A stretch of 64,000 nucleotides of DNA from the IMG/VR virus record IMGVR_UViG_3300042870_001427, positions 100,147 through 164,146 of that record; one strand, given 5' to 3'. Source of the stretch: a virus. Lineage: Duplodnaviria; Heunggongvirae; Uroviricota; Caudoviricetes. Position numbers and translations under genes: made by a program. Shown here piece by piece: positions 35,609-49,537 of the stretch (its first letter is position 1; the number at the start of each line of letters is the position of its first letter). A model generated the notes under the pieces. It ran no database searches and was not told the origin of the DNA. It saw nothing but the letters and a program-made list of their open reading frames with translations.

Positions 35609-36466
35609 GTGTTAATGTCGAAATTAAAAGTATCGGAGTTGTTCTACTCCATTCAAGGTGAGGGTCGCTATATGGGCGTACCTTCTGTCTTTCTAAGAAC
35701 CTTTGGCTGTAATTTTACCTGTGATGGCTTTGGTATGCCGGCTGGTGAGAAGAGTCAAGAAAGAGAAGTGATAGCACACAATGCAGACAATTACAAGACT
35801 TATAAAAGTCTCCCTCTTGTTTCTACTGGTTGTGATTCATATGCTTCTTGGGATGTTCGTTTTAAGCATCTCAGTCCTGTTATCCCTACTGACTCATTGG
35901 CCGATTCGATTGTGGATCTCCTACCGTACAAGCAATGGGAAGACGAACATCTCGTAATCACTGGCGGTGAGCCCTTACTGGGATGGCAACGAGCATACCC
36001 TGATCTCCTATCCCATCCTAAAATGGACACTCTAAAAGAGTTGACATTTGAGACAAATGGCACCCAGGAACTATCACAGGAGTTCTATAACTACCTCGGT
36101 GAATGGACATTTGCAAGAGGCATGTATGAGAACCTAACCTTCTCTGTCTCCCCCAAGCTATCGGCATCAGGCGAGAAATGGGAAGATGCAATTAAACCCG
36201 ATATTGTGGCACAATACTCTATGATTGGTTATACCTACCTTAAGTTTGTAGTAAGTGATATGCTTCACGTGCAAGAAGCAGAGGAGGCAGTTAATGAGTA
36301 TCGCAAAAAAGGCTTTGATGGCCCTGTTTACCTTATGCCTGTTGGTGGGGTTGAACGGGTGTACGCTCTTAATAATAGACAGGTTGCTGAATACGCCATG
36401 AAAAAAGGATGGAGATATAGTGACCGTTTACAAGTACCGCTATTTAAAAATGAATGGGGAACCTAA
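35609..36466 (+). CDS. queE: 7-carboxy-7-deazaguanine synthase QueE-like (radical SAM).
   Basis: ELFYSIQGEGRYMGVPSVFLRTFGCNFTCDGFG corresponds to the QueE N-terminal signature (FxSIQGEG…FxRxxGCNLxC). Confidence 0.8.
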   Translation: MLMSKLKVSELFYSIQGEGRYMGVPSVFLRTFGCNFTCDGFGMPAGEKSQEREVIAHNADNYKTYKSLPLVSTGCDSYASWDVRFKHLSPVIPTDSLADSIVDLLPYKQWEDEHLVITGGEPLLGWQRAYPDLLSHPKMDTLKELTFETNGTQELSQEFYNYLGEWTFARGMYENLTFSVSPKLSASGEKWEDAIKPDIVAQYSMIGYTYLKFVVSDMLHVQEAEEAVNEYRKKGFDGPVYLMPVGGVERVYALNNRQVAEYAMKKGWRYSDRLQVPLFKNEWGT

Positions 36467-36942
36467 TGGCAAAATATATTTCAACAAAGACCTACAGACA
36501 CTTAGGACCTGTAGCATATAGACAGTGGAGGGCTGATAGTCATTGTAATCTGATTCACGGATATGCTCTATCCTTCCATTTTGAATTCGAATGTGATACC
36601 TTGGATGCCCGTAACTGGTGCGTTGACTTTGGTGGTCTAAAGGATCTAAAGTATAACTTAGAAGACTGGTTCGATCATACGTTGTTGGTTGCACAAGATG
36701 ACCCCCAGCGTGAGGAGTTACTGAAACTAGGTAAACTAGGATTGGCTAAAATCACCGAGGTAGAGAAGACCGGATGTGAAGGATTGGCTGACTTCCTATA
36801 CGAATACATCAACACAATCATGCTACCGGGCTGGGGTGAAGAAGCCAAACGTGTATGGTGTAGCAGGGTTGAGGTGAGGGAGACGGACTCAAACATGGCA
36901 ATGAGAGTCGGTCATAGAGAAGATAATGAATTTGTGGGATAA
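36454..36942 (+). CDS. queD: 6-carboxytetrahydropterin synthase QueD-like.
   Basis: CNLIHGYALSFHFEFEC corresponds to the QueD CxxxHGH zinc motif. Size is 162 aa. Confidence 0.8.
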   Translation: MGNLMAKYISTKTYRHLGPVAYRQWRADSHCNLIHGYALSFHFEFECDTLDARNWCVDFGGLKDLKYNLEDWFDHTLLVAQDDPQREELLKLGKLGLAKITEVEKTGCEGLADFLYEYINTIMLPGWGEEAKRVWCSRVEVRETDSNMAMRVGHREDNEFVG

Positions 36943-36944
36943 TT

Positions 36945-37637
36945 ATGGAACGATATTTTTCTGATGTGTTACGTGAGAGAATGAAGCAAGACGGTAAACG
37001 GTTCTTTGCTTGTGATAATATTTCTGAATACCTTGACGATCATGGTCGAGAGTTTTTAGTGAATGAGTTAACAGAGAAGTTCAATGGTGTATTAAGTTCC
37101 TTACTCATTGATACCGAGAATGATCCTAATAGTAAGGGTACGGGGAAGCGTCTGGCTAAGATGTATGTAGACGAGATCATGTCCGGTCGCTATTACCCCG
37201 AACCAGACTCTACTGCATTTCCTAACGACGGAACAGAACGCTATACAGGTATGCTGGTGGTGAGGGCAGAACTTAAATCAATGTGTTCCCATCACCATCA
37301 ACCGGTAAGGGGGATTGCATACATTGGTATCATTCCAGGTAATAAGGTGATTGGTCTGTCCAAGTATGCACGGGTGGCTCAATGGCATGCACGTAGAGGT
37401 ACATTACAGGAAGAACTGTGTACCCATATTGCTAACTCTATCATGAAATCGACTGAATCACCTGACGTTGCAGTATACATTGCCGCACGTCACGGGTGTT
37501 GTGAGAATAGAGGAATCAATGCCCATTCCTCCCTCACCCAGACAACCGTCCTTCACGGTCAATTCCATCAGGCAGACGTAAAGAAAGAGTTCTTCGATAA
37601 CATTGCCTTACAGCAAACATATAACGAAAAACTTTAA
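36945..37637 (+). CDS. folE: GTP cyclohydrolase I FolE-like.
   Basis: MCSHHHQPVRGIAYIGIIPGNKVIGLSKYARVAQWHARRGTLQEELCTHIANSI aligns with the FolE core (MCEHHLVPF…IPNGKVIGLSKLARIV…RRLQVQERLT). Confidence 0.85.
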   Translation: MERYFSDVLRERMKQDGKRFFACDNISEYLDDHGREFLVNELTEKFNGVLSSLLIDTENDPNSKGTGKRLAKMYVDEIMSGRYYPEPDSTAFPNDGTERYTGMLVVRAELKSMCSHHHQPVRGIAYIGIIPGNKVIGLSKYARVAQWHARRGTLQEELCTHIANSIMKSTESPDVAVYIAARHGCCENRGINAHSSLTQTTVLHGQFHQADVKKEFFDNIALQQTYNEKL

Positions 37638-38093: not shown

Positions 38094-38491
38094 ACGGTAA
38101 GATGTACTTAGCACGCTTTACTAATAAGCAGACCAAAGAGGTTGATTTCTTTAAGTTTGGGCATACCTCCTCATACGATGCAATGGATAGGTTTACCTAT
38201 GATCCCGAACAGTATAATAAATGGGATATCAAGATCATGAAGACCGTTTATGGTCCATTGGAGGAGATGAAGGGTGTGGAGGAGACATTTAAAGCATTCT
38301 ATCCTAAGAACTTATGGATTGAAGATAAGGTATCAGGAGTAACAGAGATTGTTAAATTAACTAGACCGGAGATTGATCGTATCATCGATCGTATGACCTG
38401 GCTCAATACTGTATACTATCAAAAGCGTGAGCGTGAAAAGGCTCAAGAAACTAAAAAACTATTAGAGGTATTTGATGAAAATCGCCCATGA
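38090..38491 (+). CDS. Hypothetical protein (133 aa).
   Basis: ORF coupled through GTATGAACGG. Confidence 0.4.
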   Translation: MNGKMYLARFTNKQTKEVDFFKFGHTSSYDAMDRFTYDPEQYNKWDIKIMKTVYGPLEEMKGVEETFKAFYPKNLWIEDKVSGVTEIVKLTRPEIDRIIDRMTWLNTVYYQKREREKAQETKKLLEVFDENRP

Positions 38492-39260
38492 AGCACCCCT
38501 GTGTATCTTTAACCGTGTACAAGAGGTTACAGATTATGACTATGCCCTTGTTCATCTGTTTGAAGAGAATGAGGAGTATTGGGATAAGTTTGTACGTGCT
38601 AAGGAGATAGGTCGAGAGATTATTCTTGATAACTCTATCTTTGAGTTGGGTGAGGCCTTTGAGGCTGATAAATTTTATCCTTGGATTGAAAAACTACAAC
38701 CTACTTACTATGTCATACCTGATGCATTGGAGAATGCTGAGAAGACAGTCGCTAATGCCAAAAGTTGGAAGCCAGTTAACGGGTGTAAGTCTATCGGAGT
38801 AGTGCAGGGTAAGACATATGAGGAGATTAAATGGTGTTACCAGGAAGTAGAACCATTGGTTGATAAGGTTGCTATCTCCTTTGACTATAGTTTCTTTATT
38901 AACCCTGAACTCAATGGCTATCTTCCTACAAAGTACCATCACTACATGTATGGGCGAGATGCACTCATCCATCGTCTACTAACTGATAACGTTATCAACA
39001 CCGATAAGCCCCATCACCTACTTGGTTGCGGACTGCCACAGGAGTTCGATAGCTATTCTGATTACGAATGGATTGATAGCGTAGATACATCTAACCCAGT
39101 AGTTGCCGCTATCAAGGGAATGAGGTATAATGGTAGGAACGGACTAGAAGATAAACCTTCCCAGAAACTCCATACCATGATCGATAGTAAACTTAGTTCA
39201 TACGAACTACAATTGGTACTCTATAACATCGAATGCTTTAGGGCTATTTGTAATGGCTAA
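38472..39260 (+). CDS. dpdA: DpdA-like 7-deazaguanine DNA transglycosylase (tRNA-guanine transglycosylase superfamily).
   Basis: HHLLGCGLPQEF resembles the TGT motif (Y)LMGVGKPED. DSVDTSNP resembles the TGT D(M)FDCV(M)PTR region. It lies inside the Que gene cluster. Confidence 0.55.
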   Translation: MMKIAHEAPLCIFNRVQEVTDYDYALVHLFEENEEYWDKFVRAKEIGREIILDNSIFELGEAFEADKFYPWIEKLQPTYYVIPDALENAEKTVANAKSWKPVNGCKSIGVVQGKTYEEIKWCYQEVEPLVDKVAISFDYSFFINPELNGYLPTKYHHYMYGRDALIHRLLTDNVINTDKPHHLLGCGLPQEFDSYSDYEWIDSVDTSNPVVAAIKGMRYNGRNGLEDKPSQKLHTMIDSKLSSYELQLVLYNIECFRAICNG

Positions 39261-39807
39261 GAAGTGGATTGCATTCTTTAGTCAGACAGGTTCGGAGATA
39301 GTCAACCTATCTTATGCCCTGGGCGTCAAGCCAGACCTCATTGTTACTAATAACATGCTAGAGGATAAGTGGAAATACCATCCCGATCTCAGAACTATGG
39401 GTACTATCATGGCAGCCAAGCATGATAGGTTGATGGCTTATATGATGGATAACGTGATCTATAATCCAGATGATGTTATAATCACCCTCCATGGCTATCT
39501 TAGAATCATTCCAGCCGAGGTGTGTGGTAAGTATAAGATGCTCAATGGGCATCCAGGTGCAATCGATTTGTATCCAGATTTAAAAGGTAAGGATCCCCAG
39601 GAGAGAACATGGGAGAACAAAGGGAACTATAAGTTCTTAGGCAGCGTAGTACATGAGGTTGTACCAGAGGTAGATGCAGGTAAAATCATAAAGAGCGTTC
39701 ACCTTACCAATAATGCGATCTCATTAGAAGAAACATTTGCTATGTTAAAGAGCACATCCCTAGCGGCATGGATATTTGCAATGAAGGAAATGGGTATATG
39801 CGTATAG
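39253..39807 (+). CDS. Formyltransferase-family protein (PurN/Fmt-like catalytic domain); candidate DpdN-type deazaguanine formyltransferase.
   Basis: IAFFSQTGSEIVNL matches the PurN N-terminal iavliSGsGSNL motif. MLNGHPGAIDLYPDLKG matches the iNiHPSLLPxfxG motif, and HEVVPEVDAGKII matches the HxVxexvDxGpii motif. Confidence 0.5.
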   Translation: MAKKWIAFFSQTGSEIVNLSYALGVKPDLIVTNNMLEDKWKYHPDLRTMGTIMAAKHDRLMAYMMDNVIYNPDDVIITLHGYLRIIPAEVCGKYKMLNGHPGAIDLYPDLKGKDPQERTWENKGNYKFLGSVVHEVVPEVDAGKIIKSVHLTNNAISLEETFAMLKSTSLAAWIFAMKEMGICV

Positions 39808-40337
39808 GTATAACGGGTGCTCAATCAGTAGGTAAGACTACTCTATTGAATGCTTTACGTTCGGAGAAACTATTCTCTGAAAATAACTTTGTTATATGCG
39901 ATGAGGTTACTCGCCGGGTGAAGAGTTATGGGTTACCTATCAATGAGAGTGGGACTGATACAACCCAGCGCCTCATTATGAATGAGCATATCGTAAATGT
40001 ATTCATGCATGAAAGAATGCTTACCGATCGTACTGCATTGGATGGGTTGGTCTATACTACCTATTTGTATAAGCATGCAAAGGTCAATATGCAAACGGTT
40101 GCCTATGCTACTGAAGTGTTCAATAAGGTATGGAAGCAATACAATCACGTATTCTATATTGAGCCAGAATTTGATATAGTAGATGATGGAGTACGTAGTG
40201 TAGATATAGACTTTAGAAACGAGATAGCAGATATGTTTGAGTCTATTATCGTTAATAAGAAACTATCCATGCATCGAGTTAAAGGTTCTGTTCGTAACAG
40301 AGTCAATTCGATTATGGATTTACTAGAAGGAAGATAA
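39768..40337 (+). CDS. Deoxynucleoside-kinase-like P-loop kinase.
   Basis: Walker A motif GITGAQSVGKTTLLNAL, followed by HERMLTDRTALDGLVY, which resembles the dNK ERSxxSDR motif. Confidence 0.5.
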   Translation: MDICNEGNGYMRIGITGAQSVGKTTLLNALRSEKLFSENNFVICDEVTRRVKSYGLPINESGTDTTQRLIMNEHIVNVFMHERMLTDRTALDGLVYTTYLYKHAKVNMQTVAYATEVFNKVWKQYNHVFYIEPEFDIVDDGVRSVDIDFRNEIADMFESIIVNKKLSMHRVKGSVRNRVNSIMDLLEGR

Positions 40338-41260
40338 TGAATAATCAAGATGAATTAAATAAACTAGTATCCGTTCACCTGGGTAAAGCCGGTGATGGTA
40401 CTGTAGTTAAACCATATGTAACACCAGATGAAGTCGATCCAAGCCTTCTAGTATCTGTACCCCGTTCACTTAATCGTGAACAGTATGGTATTGAGGAAGG
40501 TAACTTGCCCTTTGCTGGATGTGATGCATGGAATGCATATGAGTTTTCTACTCTATTGAAGAACGGGTTCCCTGTATCGGGTTGGCTTAAGTTCTCTTAC
40601 AGTTCCAGCACACCCAATATTGTAGAGAGTAAGTCAGTTAAGTTGTATCTTAACTCCTATAACATGGCATGTGTTGTAGAAGAGCTGCAAGACCTTTGGA
40701 GGTTAGAGGACAAGATTGCCGCCGATCTATCAAGGGCTGTTGGTGGGGAGGTTGACGTCTGTCTGTTCCTAGGTGATGTAGATACAACACGCCCGATCAT
40801 TGGCGATTTTACAGCACTAGAAACATACTGTAATGTAGGTGGTATGGAGTTCAATAACTATAACGAGAGTGCAGATATTCTTGAAGTGGTTCCAAGCATA
40901 GGTAGATACGAGAGATGGCGTTCGAACTCACTTCGTTCCAATTGCCGAGTTACTAATCAACCGGACTGGGGCGATGTATACATTCACATCAAGGGCGATC
41001 AATCAGTAACACCCGAATCGTTACTCCGATATATTATCTCTATGAGACGTGAGAATCATTTCCATGAAGAGATTTGTGAATGTATTTACAAGCGTATTAA
41101 AGACTTAATCAATCCTAAAGAGTTGTTTGTAGCATGTCTGTATACACGCCGGGGTGGTATTGATATTAATCCAGTACGTGCAACTGATAGCCGACTCATG
41201 CATGTATACGGTTCAATTGTTAACGCAGGGCTTCCTTGCACTAAAACGGCGAGACAATAA
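40337..41260 (+). CDS. queF: NADPH-dependent 7-cyano-7-deazaguanine reductase QueF-like (bimodular YqcD type).
   Basis: The QueF motif VESKSVKLYLNSY (E-S/L-K-S-x-K-L-Y) is present. The catalytic Cys motif CRVTNQPDWG matches CPVTGQPDF. Size is 307 aa. Confidence 0.8.
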   Translation: MNNQDELNKLVSVHLGKAGDGTVVKPYVTPDEVDPSLLVSVPRSLNREQYGIEEGNLPFAGCDAWNAYEFSTLLKNGFPVSGWLKFSYSSSTPNIVESKSVKLYLNSYNMACVVEELQDLWRLEDKIAADLSRAVGGEVDVCLFLGDVDTTRPIIGDFTALETYCNVGGMEFNNYNESADILEVVPSIGRYERWRSNSLRSNCRVTNQPDWGDVYIHIKGDQSVTPESLLRYIISMRRENHFHEEICECIYKRIKDLINPKELFVACLYTRRGGIDINPVRATDSRLMHVYGSIVNAGLPCTKTARQ

Positions 41261-41496
41261 TGGAATTTGAAACACAGCCTATTGATAAGAATGTAGAAGC
41301 CGTTCGTAAGTTACTTTGGCAGCGTATGGGCGCAGGGTATGCAAAGTACGGCACCACTACTGAACGAACTGATATTGATATGTTAGGATGGCTACAGCAC
41401 CTACAAGAAGAACTGTTAGATGCTGCAGTATATGTTGAAAGGTTAAAAGATGAACTTAGAACAAGCGCTAGCAAAGCTCCCAGAAACGCCATTTAA
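41260..41496 (+). CDS. Hypothetical protein (78 aa), overlapping the queC start.
   Basis: ORF coupled at TAATGG. Its 3' end overlaps queC by about 47 nt, so the call is uncertain. Confidence 0.3.
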   Translation: MEFETQPIDKNVEAVRKLLWQRMGAGYAKYGTTTERTDIDMLGWLQHLQEELLDAAVYVERLKDELRTSASKAPRNAI

Positions 41497-42199
41497 TGTT
41501 GTATCGGTCCTATCTGGAGGACTTGATTCAACTATCCTCACCTATATCTTAGTTAAGAAGTATGGTAAGGATAGAGTGTTCGCACTCTCATATGACTATG
41601 GACAAAAGCAGGTACGTGAATTGGCTATGGCAGCAGCTACTTGTAGTCACTTAAACATACCACATAAGATTTTACATCTTGGCATCCTTGGTGATATTGT
41701 AAAGAACGTATCTGCTAACATTGGCGGTACAAGTGTTGCAATGCCAACGATCAAAGACGTGCTTGGTGACCCACAACCAAAGACGTACGTGCCGTTTCGT
41801 AATATGATCCTTAACTCACTGGCATTCTCATTCGCGGAATCTAATAAGGCATCTCATGTCTTTACCGGCTTGCAGGTGCATGACGAATATGGCTACTGGG
41901 ATACATCTCAACGCTTTGTCGATAGTATGAATGCTGTTGCCGAACAAAACCGTTCGCATAAGGTTAGACTGGAGGCACCATTCTCTACCCTATCCAAGTA
42001 CGATGAGTTGATGATTGCCAACGAGCTGGGCAATGTCGAGCTATCATATACCTTGACATGCTATAACCCAGACTCGGCAGGTAAGAGTTGTGGTAAGTGT
42101 CCTTCATGTAGTGAACGTATTGCCAACTTTGCCAAAGCTGGCATTAAAGATCCAATTCCGTATAATGTTGATATACCTTGGGACAAGTTAATTAAATAA
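41450..42199 (+). CDS. queC: 7-cyano-7-deazaguanine synthase QueC-like.
   Basis: PP-loop motif VVSVLSGGLDSTI and C-terminal zinc cluster CYNP…CGKCPSCSER are present. Size is 249 aa. Confidence 0.85.
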   Translation: MNLEQALAKLPETPFNVVSVLSGGLDSTILTYILVKKYGKDRVFALSYDYGQKQVRELAMAAATCSHLNIPHKILHLGILGDIVKNVSANIGGTSVAMPTIKDVLGDPQPKTYVPFRNMILNSLAFSFAESNKASHVFTGLQVHDEYGYWDTSQRFVDSMNAVAEQNRSHKVRLEAPFSTLSKYDELMIANELGNVELSYTLTCYNPDSAGKSCGKCPSCSERIANFAKAGIKDPIPYNVDIPWDKLIK

Positions 42200-42828
42200 T
42201 GTGTGCAATTATAGGATCGTTTAATAAAGACAAACTGATTGAGTTGATAGATCTTAATAGCTATCGAGGCAGTCATTCGTTTTCTTTTTCTGTTATACCG
42301 TTGCATGGTGACTTACATGTGATGGTTAAAGGAATGGGCACATTAGATAAAAACTTACTTGATCTAATACAGGATGGGGGCTATGGTATCGTTCACATAC
42401 AGGCGCCAACTACAGAGGCAAAAGACTTTGATAGTGTTCATCCGGCAAGGGAGTGGTTTACTGCTCTCTGGCATAACGGTATCATAAAGGCAAATTATGT
42501 TAAAGAGATGCAAGCACGCTTTGGCAACGATACGAACTGGGATACGCAATTGTTACTTCGAGCTGTCAATACGTCTAGAGATGAAATTAACAACGTGGAC
42601 GGATCTTTTAGTTGTCTGTGGTATGACGGGGCTGGAGCTTATCTTTTTAGGAATGATATTAGCCCTATGTTCTTCGATAATGAGTTAAACATTTCATCAA
42701 CGAAGTTTGAAGGTAGTATACCAACACCACCAAATAAGTTTTTGTTTATGGACTTTGAGACCAAGGCGCTATATAATAGAGGTGAGTTTAAAACGGTAGA
42801 AAATCCGTACTATTTTGGAGATGATTAA
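42199..42828 (+). CDS. Class-II (Ntn) glutamine amidotransferase-like protein, stand-alone, adjacent to queC.
   Basis: It begins MCAIIG, and Cys2 is the hallmark Ntn nucleophile of GATase-2 / asparagine-synthase N-domains. Its start overlaps the queC stop (TAATGTG). Confidence 0.55.
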   Translation: MCAIIGSFNKDKLIELIDLNSYRGSHSFSFSVIPLHGDLHVMVKGMGTLDKNLLDLIQDGGYGIVHIQAPTTEAKDFDSVHPAREWFTALWHNGIIKANYVKEMQARFGNDTNWDTQLLLRAVNTSRDEINNVDGSFSCLWYDGAGAYLFRNDISPMFFDNELNISSTKFEGSIPTPPNKFLFMDFETKALYNRGEFKTVENPYYFGDD

Positions 42829-42830
42829 GC

Positions 42831-43331
42831 ATGAAGCATATCTTAGGACCAGATTCAAGGTCTACCCTAACTGCTGTCCAAGAAGGCGACAGCCAACCCA
42901 ACGCCATTGACCTAAGGGTCGACAAAGTATTCAAAGTTAATGATGGACTATTCGAAGTATCAAACGAACACAAAAAGCACAGAGGATCAATCGAGATCAA
43001 ACCTGACTTGGAAGGATACTTTAACCTACCCATCGGCCATTACGAGGTCGTTATGGAGAACATTATCAGTGTGGGACAAGGCGAGGCAGGATGGGTCATT
43101 ACCCGCAGCACTCTTAACCGTAACGGTCTTTTTCTTACATCTGGCTTGTACGATAGCGGCTATCATGGTGCTATGGCCGGTATGCTTCACGTTACAATTG
43201 GCCAGGCTAGGATTAAAAAGGGTACGAGGATAGGACAGTATTTAAGTTTTGATGCAGAGTCATTAGGAATGTATGATGGTGACTATGGTATTAATAAAGA
43301 GCATGATAAAAAATATGGAGTAACACAATGA
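42831..43331 (+). CDS. dCTP deaminase/dUTPase-fold protein.
   Basis: NAIDLRV and GLYDSGYHGAMAGMLHV match the dUTPase/DCD motifs (xIDLR, GxIDxGYxG). Confidence 0.55.
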   Translation: MKHILGPDSRSTLTAVQEGDSQPNAIDLRVDKVFKVNDGLFEVSNEHKKHRGSIEIKPDLEGYFNLPIGHYEVVMENIISVGQGEAGWVITRSTLNRNGLFLTSGLYDSGYHGAMAGMLHVTIGQARIKKGTRIGQYLSFDAESLGMYDGDYGINKEHDKKYGVTQ

Positions 43332-44173
43332 AAATAGAAGTACAGATTGCAGAATTACAGAAGAAGAAACTCTTCGTTGCCACACCCATGTACGGGGGTC
43401 AGTGCGCTGGTATGTATTGCCGTTCAGTTGCTGACTTGTCTGCATTCTGCGCCAAGTACAACATCCCCTTACAGCTTTACTATCTCTTTAATGAGTCGTT
43501 GATCACCCGGGCACGTAACTATTGTGTGGATGAGTTCATGCGCAGTGATGCTACTCACTTGATGTTTATTGATAGTGATATTGGCTTTAACCCCCAAGAC
43601 GTTATCGCCTTGATGGCGTTGATGACAGACGAGAGTGACTATGACGTCATTGGCGGTCCATATCCTAAGAAATGTATCAGCTGGGAGAAGATTAAACTGG
43701 CTGTTGATAAGGGTGTAGCTGACGAGGATGCTAACCTATTAGAGAAATACGTAGGTGACTATGTGTTTAATCCTAAAGGTGGGCAGAAGGAGATCCCATT
43801 AGGTGAGCCTGTAGAGGTGTTAGAAATTGGTACCGGGTTCATGATGGTACGCAAAGAAACATTCACCAAGTATGCAGCTGCCTATCCTGAGCTGAGCTAC
43901 AAACCCGATCACGTTCGTACAGAGCACTTCGATGGTAGTAGAGAGATCCATGCATACTTTGATTGTATCATTGATCCTGAAAGCAAACGTTATCTGTCTG
44001 AGGACTATAACTTCTGTTATCATGCCCAGAAAATTGGATTGAGAGTCTGGTTCTGTCCTTGGATGCAACTCCAGCACGTTGGTAGTTATATCTTCGGTGG
44101 TAGCTTGGCTGACCTGGCAACCATTGGTGCCTCTGCTACTGCTGACTCTAGTCAATTGAAAAAGAAAAAGTAA
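43328..44173 (+). CDS. Glycosyltransferase-like protein (GT-A fold, DxD).
   Basis: LFVATPMYGG…LITRARN…HLMFIDSDIGF gives a Rossmann-like N-terminal region with a DSD metal motif. Confidence 0.45.
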   Translation: MKIEVQIAELQKKKLFVATPMYGGQCAGMYCRSVADLSAFCAKYNIPLQLYYLFNESLITRARNYCVDEFMRSDATHLMFIDSDIGFNPQDVIALMALMTDESDYDVIGGPYPKKCISWEKIKLAVDKGVADEDANLLEKYVGDYVFNPKGGQKEIPLGEPVEVLEIGTGFMMVRKETFTKYAAAYPELSYKPDHVRTEHFDGSREIHAYFDCIIDPESKRYLSEDYNFCYHAQKIGLRVWFCPWMQLQHVGSYIFGGSLADLATIGASATADSSQLKKKK

Positions 44174-46128: not shown

Positions 46129-46572
46129 ATGAATGGACGTAGAAATTTTGTTAAGGGCTTTGGTCTGCTCTCTGCTGCTCTTGCAGGGGGTGTTGCTGCT
46201 GGTGCACAAGGTAGAGATGCCTCAATGGGCAGCCCCGTTGTATCTAATCCTAATATCACTCCTGCTATCCCGCCCATTGATCCTTCCATACTTGCCCAGT
46301 TAGAGGAAGAATCAACTAATCTATGTCTGAATAGAAGTTATGGTGAGATAGCACCTCCTGAGCCCCAGCCCTCAGGCCATTATTTTTTTAGCGGATCATC
46401 CGGGGAGGAGGTAATGAGGCTTAGTTCAGATGGTGGGTTAATGATTGGAGGGTCTAGAAAGAAGTTTGTGCCAGGGACAGAGAATCAGGTGAGTGTTAAG
46501 ATGGCACCAGGTCCTGATGGTGAGTTATACCTCAACATCAAAGGCAAATGGAAGAGGGTGCTTACGACATGA
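46129..46572 (+). CDS. Exported protein with a twin-arginine-like signal peptide (147 aa).
   Basis: A strong ribosome-binding site (GGTAAGGAG) lies upstream. The N-terminus reads MNGRRNFVKGFGLLSAALAGGVAAGAQG (RRxFVK followed by an h-region and AxA). The mature part is Pro-rich. Confidence 0.5.
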   Translation: MNGRRNFVKGFGLLSAALAGGVAAGAQGRDASMGSPVVSNPNITPAIPPIDPSILAQLEEESTNLCLNRSYGEIAPPEPQPSGHYFFSGSSGEEVMRLSSDGGLMIGGSRKKFVPGTENQVSVKMAPGPDGELYLNIKGKWKRVLTT

Positions 46573-48232: not shown

Positions 48233-49537
48233 ATGAATCCATACGAACCACTTGAAGAAGAAAAAGATTACTCTAAACCAATCAACTCATTGAAAGATAA
48301 GTTGATGGCGATGAAGAAAGATCTATCAACTGTTACTAAGGCCCATGCCAAGATGGCCAAGGAAGAGGAGAAGGAAAAGGATAAGATGAATCAGGCACCA
48401 ACTCCTGAAGACCATCAAGCCGCCCTATCTCATTTCAAGAATCAGTACATGAACGCCAAGAGAAACAAGGATGATGCTGGGGCCACAGATGCTGCCAGAG
48501 GCTATCATGACTATTCCAACAAACTGGCCGATATCTATCAAAGAAAACTAAAGGAAGACATGAATAATCCTTATTCGAACCAATATAGCTTAGATGAGGC
48601 AGTCACTGTCGATAAGAAGAAATACTCCTGGGGCAAGATGGTAACTGTCCATCGCGGGAGTGATACCTCCTTCCCATTGCATCCAGAGCACCAAGCGGCC
48701 ATCAAGAAGTTAAGACCTGGTATGAAGACCACATTCAAAGACGAGACCGGGCGTCAAATTCATGCCCATCGTGAAGGTGATGATGTTCATTTAGTTCATC
48801 ACAACACCGGCTCTAGTACTGCCAAGAAGACTACAGTAGGATATCATCACTTTGATGAAGGTTACACCGAGGATGATATTGCTAGAGGGGGGACGGTGAT
48901 CTATAAGCATGGTGGGAAGCACTACATGTCCAAGGTATCCCACATGACCGGGGGCGGGGCAGGTACAAAGATCCATACCACATCTAAACTTGGTCACGAG
49001 GTCAAACTCAATCATGTAGTCTCTACTGATGCCTCCGATTGGAAAAGGTTTAAGGACAAGACAGTAAACGAGGCCAAGGATCCTGGGGAATATGACCAGG
49101 AAGGTGACATGGCCATGACCCAGTTAAGAAGCATTGCCTATCATGCCAAACAATTGCATGATCAACTAAAACCAAACGACAATCTACCTGAATGGGTACA
49201 ATCCAAGATTACTCTTGCCCAAGACTATATGCAAACGGCCCATGACTACATGGTGTCACAGATGAATGAGGGAGCATATGAGGGGGATCGTGCCAATAAA
49301 TTGGTTAAGCATTCCCAGGAGCTGTTCAACAAGTCTAAGACAGAGGCCGATCCAGATAAAAAAGCACATTTACAGAAGATGTCTTCAAAGGCCCATAAGA
49401 TCTACGGCAAGGCTGTTGCCCAGCATTTCAAGAGAAAGCCTGAAGAATACGAGAAGTTCAAGGCACACATCATGTCTTCGGCCGCAGTTGATTACAACAA
49501 ACCTGCCAGAATGGGTGGGAACTGGACAGGGGACTGA
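48233..49537 (+). CDS. His/Lys-rich hypothetical protein (434 aa).
   Basis: Long ORF with AAGGATAGG ribosome-binding site. Low-complexity, K/H/D-rich composition. Confidence 0.5.
   Translation: MNPYEPLEEEKDYSKPINSLKDKLMAMKKDLSTVTKAHAKMAKEEEKEKDKMNQAPTPEDHQAALSHFKNQYMNAKRNKDDAGATDAARGYHDYSNKLADIYQRKLKEDMNNPYSNQYSLDEAVTVDKKKYSWGKMVTVHRGSDTSFPLHPEHQAAIKKLRPGMKTTFKDETGRQIHAHREGDDVHLVHHNTGSSTAKKTTVGYHHFDEGYTEDDIARGGTVIYKHGGKHYMSKVSHMTGGGAGTKIHTTSKLGHEVKLNHVVSTDASDWKRFKDKTVNEAKDPGEYDQEGDMAMTQLRSIAYHAKQLHDQLKPNDNLPEWVQSKITLAQDYMQTAHDYMVSQMNEGAYEGDRANKLVKHSQELFNKSKTEADPDKKAHLQKMSSKAHKIYGKAVAQHFKRKPEEYEKFKAHIMSSAAVDYNKPARMGGNWTGD

Follow-up and report, generated by a model that had tools for sequence, protein, structure and literature searches.

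Genes at the queC-gat locus

The window analysed here is a stretch of 64,000 nucleotides from a virus of the Caudoviricetes (IMG/VR record IMGVR_UViG_3300042870_001427, positions 100,147 to 164,146). It carries a cluster of 7-deazaguanine genes in which queC is directly followed by a gene, called gat in the following, for a stand-alone protein resembling class-II glutamine amidotransferases of the N-terminal nucleophile (Ntn) type. We consider it probable, at roughly 60%, that this protein acts in trans as a glutaminase subunit, which together with QueC would form a two-protein, glutamine-dependent preQ0 synthase. The phage carrying the window is uncultivated. A near-identity DNA search of the cluster against isolated phages gave no match, and the closest relatives, with 95-96% protein identity, are IMG/VR contigs. 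The two genes in question are:

41450 to 42199, + strand: queC (PF06508 at E 1.5e-51; TIGR00364 with 164 bits at a cut-off of 150)
42199 to 42828, + strand: gat, stand-alone class-II (Ntn) glutamine-amidotransferase-like protein of 209 amino acids, putative glutaminase subunit of QueC (assigned by phrog_12378, family profile and Foldseek search of an AlphaFold2 model)

The translation of gat opens with MCAIIGSF. Its ATG (42199-42201) and the TAA stop codon of queC (42197-42199) overlap by one base in the sequence AAATAATGTGTGCA. As this ATG is the earliest start codon following an in-frame stop, Cys2 is the true second residue of the protein. queC and gat are separate open reading frames (ORFs) in different frames, arranged in the order queC-gat. 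The + strand carries every gene across 35.6-46 kb, and no terminator-like sites were found on this strand between 38.7 and 46.3 kb.

Family size and distribution

As a single sequence the gat product matches phrog_12378, for which no function is known, at E 5e-44. Among 90%-identity clusters 640 homologues were found at E<=1e-3, and among 50%-identity cluster representatives there were 1256 at E<=1e-3 and 307 at E<=1e-30. With 640 homologues and 307 representatives at the stricter threshold, gat is not a chance ORF. Nearly all of the best 150 representatives have a length of 196-235 amino acids and all of them align from Gat residue 1. Three longer members (327-349 amino acids) have C-terminal extensions which are of low complexity or match DUF3310 and are uninformative.

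A Gat homologue is present in 52 phage records, including those of pf16, nt-1, KVP40, phi-Grn1, phi-ST2, VH7D and 6E35.1a, and IMG/VR holds 302 relatives of the family. When 185,579 bacterial and archaeal genomes were searched, the family was found in just five short contigs of metagenome-assembled genomes (MAGs; loci L084 to L088: FZLS01000081, PBHE01000045, NZ_JAQTPQ010000119, PBYV01000032 and JABSQC010000141), which are binned into Rhodobacteraceae, Acidimicrobiaceae, Flavobacterium and Mycoplasmataceae MAGs. Four of the five contigs carry queC, on three of them directly upstream of gat. These occurrences are probably mis-binned phage DNA. A cellular origin of the family was considered and dropped, as the five MAG contigs resemble phage DNA and no sign of such an origin was seen. 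The Gat family is large, almost purely viral and stand-alone.

Fold and active site

The window protein alone has no match in Pfam or NCBIfam, and in a phmmer search of the PDB the match to the glutaminase domain of GlmS reached no better than E 0.53. The family as a whole is more informative: among 38 members, 17 match GATase_6 (best E 5e-10) and 14 match GATase_7, and a profile built from the 38 sequences finds E. coli GlmS (E 3.9e-6) and PurF (E 3.7e-3) in the PDB. The AlphaFold2 model of the window protein has a predicted local distance difference test score (pLDDT) of 92.7 and a predicted template modelling score of 0.89. Foldseek searches with this model returned GlmS (1xff/3ooj), PurF (1ecb), EgtC (4zfl) and asparagine synthetase (ASNS, 6gq3) with E-values of 1e-8 to 1e-5 and query-normalised TM-scores of 0.58-0.70. 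Among the solved structures, GlmS and PurF ranked best with their Ntn glutaminase domains; EgtC, asparagine synthetase and beta-lactam synthetase came next. In a fold search of BFVD only generic viral Gn_AT_II proteins were found besides, and the Gat-QueC protein of phage Vid5 ranked 18th.

Residue conservation was counted in 150 diverse representatives. The N-terminal nucleophile Cys2 is present in all 146 sequences with an intact N-terminus, and 144 of the 150 start with MC. This bears out the first-pass annotation of the window, made from the letters alone, which had taken the ORF starting with MCAIIG as a genuine gene with a Cys2 nucleophile. Arg23 is found in 147 of the 150 representatives, and Thr71, His92-Asn93-Gly94 and Asp115 are each found in every one. 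When the family is aligned to GlmS, Cys1, Arg26, Thr76, Asn98-Gly99 (in the HNG motif) and Asp123 of the enzyme all have counterparts. Judged by sequence profile and predicted structure, the window protein is a stand-alone protein with the class-II (Ntn) glutamine-amidotransferase fold.

The family ends in a near-invariant tail with the motif FxTxxNPYYF (residues 197-209, window positions 42790-42828). Model confidence is low here (pLDDT 56), as expected for a docking peptide, for which the tail is a candidate.

Relation to Gat-QueC

In Gat-QueC both activities reside in one chain with Gat at the N-terminus, as in Enterobacteria phage 9g, Pantoea phage Vid5 and some Crenarchaeota, whereas in the window queC precedes a separate gat. 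Common to both systems are the class-II Ntn fold, its pairing with a PP-loop enzyme of the QueC family within a phage 7-deazaguanine cluster, an N-terminal MC, the oxyanion motif HNG, a conserved Asp and a stretch reading PTTE. The first-pass annotation had described the gene order as the reverse of that in fused Gat-QueC. The sequence comparison, for which Gat-QueC of phage 9g and 20 relatives were used, does not bear out a reversed or split Gat-QueC. The HMMER family model gives 32.5 bits for GlmS, 23.7 for PurF and 9.4 for AsnB, but no reportable score for 9g Gat-QueC and at most 11 bits for the 20 other Gat-QueC proteins. Compared with single sequences, the family profile reaches probabilities of 93% for E. 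coli GlmS, 77% for PurF and 38% for AsnB, and of about 2% for 9g. Only the profile-profile comparison with the Gat domains of Gat-QueC, which the first-pass annotation had proposed as a check, gives 85-89% probability (E ~1e-6), a likeness at the level of the superfamily. The window Gat is thus not of the Gat-QueC sequence type (RAEPTTE, DQQPY, HNGTIAND, IDSAAI). The best alignments are to domains of the GlmS/PurF type, which is in spirit the outcome that the first-pass annotation had named as speaking against its proposal, namely a domain unrelated to Gat-QueC. By sequence, the family is an independent branch of the class-II amidotransferases, no nearer to Gat-QueC than to GlmS or PurF, and not a detached Gat-QueC domain; its description as a split Gat-QueC was rejected, with hhalign probabilities of 1.6-2.4% against the 9g sequence.

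A split protein could still share the chemistry. The window protein and QueC might act, as is assumed of fused Gat-QueC, as an archaeosine-type synthase that turns preQ0 or an activated amide into the amidine G+, so that dG+ would occur in DNA beside or instead of preQ1 derivatives. That a class-II amidotransferase adjoins QueC as in Gat-QueC agrees with this idea, and so does the profile-profile match, in which QAPTTE of the family is aligned with RAEPTTE. However, the family model scores Gat-QueC well below GlmS and PurF, and the partner QueC is of the canonical and not of the Gat-QueC type. Together with the DNA data given below, this leads us to regard a split G+ synthase as unlikely.

The partner QueC

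The QueC of the window shares 29% identity with E. coli QueC and belongs to another clade than the QueC domain of 9g, to which it is 24% identical. It also gives weak matches to Asn_synthase and NAD_synthase. According to the QueC model it is of the canonical type, in a clade of its own. The P-loop SGGLDS, VPFRN, the conserved Lys K183 and the zinc site with its Tyr, C204-Y205...C214, C217 and C220, are invariant in the alignment of this clade. The canonical QueC signature comprises YxQxHxxE and YPDC (PMC13082051). In the Gat-linked clade these motifs read YGQKQxxE, with His replaced by Gln, and YWDT, while the essential Tyr residues are kept. The clade has in addition a conserved C-terminal PYxxxIPW, which is absent from the QueC proteins of E. 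coli, phiSM, Skure and 9g.

Among the phage isolates 51 records encode a QueC with 52-67% identity to that of the window, the next-best QueC having at most 33%. These 51 records represent the same Vibrio phage group plus pf16 that was found in the search for Gat. This one-to-one match of Gat and the special QueC clade points to a co-inherited module.

Synteny across related loci

Related loci were inspected for 80 of the 302 IMG/VR relatives, the five MAG contigs and phage isolates, and 87 loci entered the synteny count. Some of them are near-duplicates, so that the locus counts are partly non-independent. queC lies immediately upstream of gat on the same strand in 82 of the 87 loci, including KVP40, nt-1, phi-Grn1 and pf16; of the five other loci, three lie at the end of a contig. 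With this conserved adjacency and the one-base overlap of stop and start codon, the tight link to queC claimed at first sight is confirmed. The two genes overlap in 40 of the 82 loci (by one base, or by 8-16 nt), are separated by gaps of 1-59 nt in 22 and by one inserted gene in 20. Judged by eye, one such inserted gene (locus L017, 9501-10040) resembles HAD/5'-nucleotidase (NT5C) proteins with the motif DMDGV, and another (locus L039, 9404-10000) encodes a membrane protein of 198 amino acids resembling the preQ0/preQ1 transporter YhhQ.

The content of pathway genes was counted in the 57 loci with at least 4.5 kb of upstream sequence. queC is present in all 57, queF in 42 and dpdN in 30, and the transglycosylase is DpdA3 or DpdA2. 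The combination of the window, DpdA3 with DpdN, a kinase-like gene and QueF, occurs in 28 loci. DpdA2 with QueF and DpdA3 without QueF are found in 11 loci each, DpdA2 without QueF in three, and DpdA2 with ArcS in one (nt-1). The first-pass annotation had singled out the co-occurrence of gat with queF. This carries no special meaning, as gat adjoins queC whether or not queF is present, and 15 of the 57 loci have no queF. The constant partner of gat is QueC, and neither QueF nor a downstream gene.

Downstream of gat (42831-44173) the window encodes a dUTPase/dCTP-deaminase-like protein (PRK02253, E 1e-22) and a protein of phrog_1574 with a weak match to the Anp1 glycosyltransferase.

Both downstream genes are syntenic in most window-like loci and absent in pf16 and nt-1. 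They touch on another explanation, by which gat would have no role in deazaguanine synthesis and would encode a remnant or auxiliary GlmS/PurF-like glutaminase for nucleotide or amino-sugar metabolism, its place beside queC reflecting shared phage ancestry. The top sequence and fold matches are indeed GlmS and PurF, and the dcd-like and phrog_1574 genes come next in many loci. However, these downstream genes vary and are missing in many loci besides pf16 and nt-1, whereas queC is the sole neighbour that stays the same in both the DpdA2 and the DpdA3 lineages and in different phage groups. The one-to-one match with the special QueC clade and the lack of a synthase domain of its own also argue against a separate function, which we hold to be very improbable.

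DNA product of the window and its relatives

The remaining genes of the 7-deazaguanine cluster, all upstream of queC, are the following:

35609 to 36466, + strand: queE, radical-SAM CDG (7-carboxy-7-deazaguanine) synthase, named from conserved position and sequence (translation, synteny)
36454 to 36942, + strand: queD, CPH4 synthase (translation, match to QueD of immuto_2-6A, synteny)
36945 to 37637, + strand: folE, GTP cyclohydrolase I (translation, 38.5% identity to FolE of immuto_2-6A, synteny)
38472 to 39260, + strand: DpdA3-type DNA guanine transglycosylase (54.9% identity to DpdA of immuto_2-6A, 38-39% to the Campylobacter CP220 group; phrog_19058)
39253 to 39807, + strand: DpdN-like formyltransferase of the PurN superfamily (PF00551; 38.9% identity to the formyltransferase of immuto_2-6A)
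39768 to 40337, + strand: AAA_28/'thymidylate kinase'-like P-loop protein between dpdN and queF
40337 to 41260, + strand: bimodular queF, NADPH-dependent preQ0 reductase (QueF_N E 9e-30, QueF E 7e-20; TIGR03138 E 1.7e-69 with 234 bits, under the cut-off of 293)
41260 to 41496, + strand: small conserved ORF of 78 amino acids, function unknown, overlapping the start of queC by 47 nt

The gene at 40337-41260, with its QueF_N and QueF domains, shows that a queF is encoded in the same genome, as had been stated before. Its translation contains ESKSVKLYL and a Cys in CRVTNQPDWG, which we take to be the NADPH motif E(S/L)K(S/A)hK(L/Y)(Y/F/W) and the catalytic Cys in CRVTNQPDW, respectively.

The order DpdA3, DpdN, kinase-like protein, QueF is common to the window and the Flavobacterium phage immuto_2-6A. 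In the DNA of the latter fdPreQ1 amounts to 345,000 per 10^6 nt, and DpdA3 is tied to complete replacement of guanine (PMC10516641, which also defines DpdN). The predicted product of the window, based on DpdA3 and the DpdN-like enzyme, is fdPreQ1. Since fdPreQ1 requires the nitrile preQ0 and then the amine preQ1, the presence of QueF and DpdN in the window weighs against an amidine, and thereby against a split G+ synthase. Four Flavobacterium immuto records are the sole isolate matches of the DpdN-like formyltransferase among 50,697 phage records, and it is found in at least 30 IMG/VR loci. Phages of the fdPreQ1 type may be common in uncultivated aquatic viromes.

The amidino (dG+) product considered in the first-pass annotation is not supported by the relatives with known DNA bases. 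phi-Grn1 and phi-ST2 carry the queC-gat pair plus QueF; their DNA contains dPreQ1 (816 and 668 per 10^6 nt, respectively) and mdPreQ1 (35 and 44), and dG+ is 0 (PMC10516641). In 6E35.1a dPreQ1 amounts to 15% of dG (PMC12028318). nt-1, without QueF and with ArcS, has dPreQ0 (232 per 10^6 nt), dADG (72) and a little dG+ (44). This last value could be counted in favour of a split G+ synthase, but DpdA2 and ArcS of nt-1 alone lead to dG+ in E. coli (PMC10516641), so that they suffice to explain the trace. Gat-QueC phages carry dG+, whereas relatives of the queC-gat module carry dPreQ0 or dPreQ1 derivatives. The published base data neither require nor suggest that the pair forms an amidine. The 15 loci without queF can be counted in favour of a split G+ synthase, as their end product may be another one.

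A proposed trans-acting glutaminase for QueC

QueC is a PP-loop ATP pyrophosphatase. The synthetase domains of its relatives AsnB, NadE and GuaA obtain their ammonia from glutaminases, present as domains or as subunits. QueC itself uses ammonia and two ATP to convert CDG via the amide ADG to the nitrile preQ0 (PMC13082051). We propose that the window protein supplies this ammonia. Met1 would be removed, leaving the N-terminal Cys free as nucleophile, Asn93-Gly94 would form the oxyanion hole and Asp115 would hold the alpha-amino group of glutamine. The amide of glutamine would be hydrolysed and the released NH3 passed to a docked QueC, docking being mediated perhaps by the NPYYF tail and the C-terminal extension of QueC. 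With this NH3 and two ATP, QueC would convert CDG to ADG and on to preQ0. QueF would then reduce preQ0 to preQ1, the DpdN-like enzyme would formylate it, and DpdA3 would exchange the base into DNA to give fdPreQ1. The benefit could be a nitrogen supply free of ammonium dependence, under ammonium limitation or at high flux, for a phage in whose DNA much of the guanine is replaced.

The proposal is supported by the fold, the conserved catalytic residues, the synteny, the coupling of stop and start codon, the co-inheritance with a QueC clade and the independence from queF. In addition, the dPreQ1 and mdPreQ1 of the relatives, and the bases of nt-1, which are mostly dPreQ0, fit preQ0 as the output. 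Among the first-pass suggestions had been a novel use of ammonia derived from glutamine, which comes close to this explanation; glutamine as the donor, the docking and the transfer of ammonia are inferred.

Several known systems resemble the proposed pair in part. By the same logic, in AsnB and other glutamine-dependent PP-loop amidoligases an Ntn glutaminase gives NH3 to a PP-loop ATP pyrophosphatase which activates a carboxylate. However, AsnB consists of one polypeptide and has an ammonia tunnel inside it, its acceptor is aspartate and not CDG or ADG, and its Gat domain scores poorly with the family model. The archaeal split GMP synthase combines a PP-loop ATP pyrophosphatase of the QueC superfamily with a glutaminase subunit encoded next to it (PMC13082051). 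This glutaminase is of class I (catalytic triad, PF00117), whereas the window protein is of class II. The glutaminase domains of GlmS and PurF are the closest known ones by sequence profile and fold; the stand-alone family differs from these enzymes by the lack of the fused isomerase (GlmS) or phosphoribosyltransferase (PurF) domain and by its own FxTxxNPYYF tail. Proteins of the EgtC/YafJ type are, like the window protein, single-domain Ntn proteins of about 200-250 amino acids with an N-terminal Cys. However, EgtC is a gamma-glutamyl amidohydrolase and not an ammonia donor, shares about 10% identity and has no link to QueC.

Several points weigh against a trans-acting glutaminase. The Arg that binds the carboxylate of glutamine (R73 in both GlmS and PurF) is replaced by Gln68 in 149 of the 150 representatives, the motif being HxQAPT in the family versus HTRWAT and HVRYPT in GlmS and PurF; with respect to GlmS, the neighbouring Trp74 is changed as well, to Ala. 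Gat-QueC, too, keeps the Arg (RAEPTTE), whereas the stand-alone family has Gln (QAPTTE). Because an Arg kept in GlmS, PurF and Gat-QueC is replaced, the use of glutamine is not assured. To our knowledge, class-II amidotransferases that have been characterised share one chain with their synthase, and the stand-alone Ntn relatives studied, for instance EgtC, act simply as hydrolases. A search for natural QueC-Gat fusions, made with an artificial chimera of QueC and Gat as query, found none; the top 120 matches were all stand-alone QueCs that cover 53-56% of the query. Moreover, immuto_2-6A has no detectable Gat homologue and reaches complete replacement by fdPreQ1 (PMC10516641), and QueC works with free ammonia. 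As immuto_2-6A manages without a homologue and QueC takes free ammonia, the protein is accessory at best. Finally, DpdA2 phages with gat have very low levels of modification (PMC10516641), which weakens the high-flux rationale for these carriers.

The replaced Arg leads to a further explanation, by which the protein would serve the 7-deazaguanine pathway as an Ntn amidohydrolase with a substrate other than glutamine. It could act on another amide or gamma-glutamyl compound, or its Cys could attack the amide of ADG or the nitrile of preQ0, in a tailoring or proofreading role with the divergent QueC. The invariant Gln, the changed motifs at the pocket rim of the QueC clade (YGQKQxxE, YWDT), and the hydrolytic nature of stand-alone Ntn relatives such as EgtC, which is among the Foldseek matches, are in line with it. 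QueC-fold enzymes are also capable of other reactions, as QatC and Cap9 can ligate CDG to amines. On the other hand, the rest of the glutamine site (Asp115, Thr71, Arg23 and Asn-Gly) is invariant, the relatives make ordinary preQ0-derived bases, and for phi-Grn1, phi-ST2 and nt-1 no deazaguanine species without an explanation was reported. We regard such a hydrolase as possible, though doubtful.

A related and somewhat bolder idea, rather improbable in our estimation, is a new enzyme pair in the stricter sense. The window protein would then be the first class-II (Ntn) subunit acting in trans, and the exchange of Arg for Gln together with the altered rim of QueC (His to Gln, PDC to WDT) could mean a different chemistry, for example a nitrogen donor other than glutamine, or an amide or amidine base that is formed directly. 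The latter is most plausible in the 15 loci without queF, 11 of which carry DpdA3.

Novelty and significance of the family

Glutaminase-synthetase pairs and fused Gat-QueC are already known, and sequences of the family have been public since KVP40. The MMBR 2024 review (PMC10966956) aside, no description of a stand-alone Gat adjoining a phage queC was found in the literature. The gene table of nt-1 (2019 supplement) gives the neighbouring proteins and lacks the Gat protein, and the gene is unmentioned in PMC13082051, PMC12028318 and the accessible part of PMC10516641. What appears to be new is that these sequences are recognised as a class-II amidotransferase family which is large, specific to viruses and stand-alone, and which is coupled to a QueC clade of its own.

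If the window protein is a glutaminase for QueC, a phage-encoded partner would be a missing component of 7-deazaguanine DNA-modification pathways, QueC being described as ammonia-dependent. It would also explain a high deazaguanine flux in ammonium-poor waters, and its action in trans would be unusual for a class-II amidotransferase. The pair offers a tractable system for the role of an amidotransferase beside QueC, a question that is open for fused Gat-QueC too (PMC5699537), and the gene is present in the cultured model phages KVP40, nt-1, phi-Grn1 and pf16. With 302 IMG/VR matches, the queC-gat pair is a marker for a large group of aquatic phages that are uncultivated and have modified DNA.

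Further observations in the window

The AAA_28 P-loop gene between dpdN and queF is found at the same place in 29 related loci and in immuto_2-6A. In its accessible part, the paper on the fdPreQ1 pathway (PMC10516641) gives this gene no role. The ORF of 78 amino acids at 41260-41496 matches several PHROGs of unknown function, and homologues lie at the same place in many loci. Outside of the cluster, an ORF of 147 amino acids at 46129-46572 starts with MNGRRNFVKGFGLLSAALAGGVAAGAQG, which looks like a twin-arginine (Tat) signal peptide and is unusual in a region of phage replication genes. At 48233-49537 the window contains a Lys/His-rich low-complexity ORF of 434 amino acids, located within DNA of strong AT skew (0.25) and of a G+C content slightly above that of the rest of the window.

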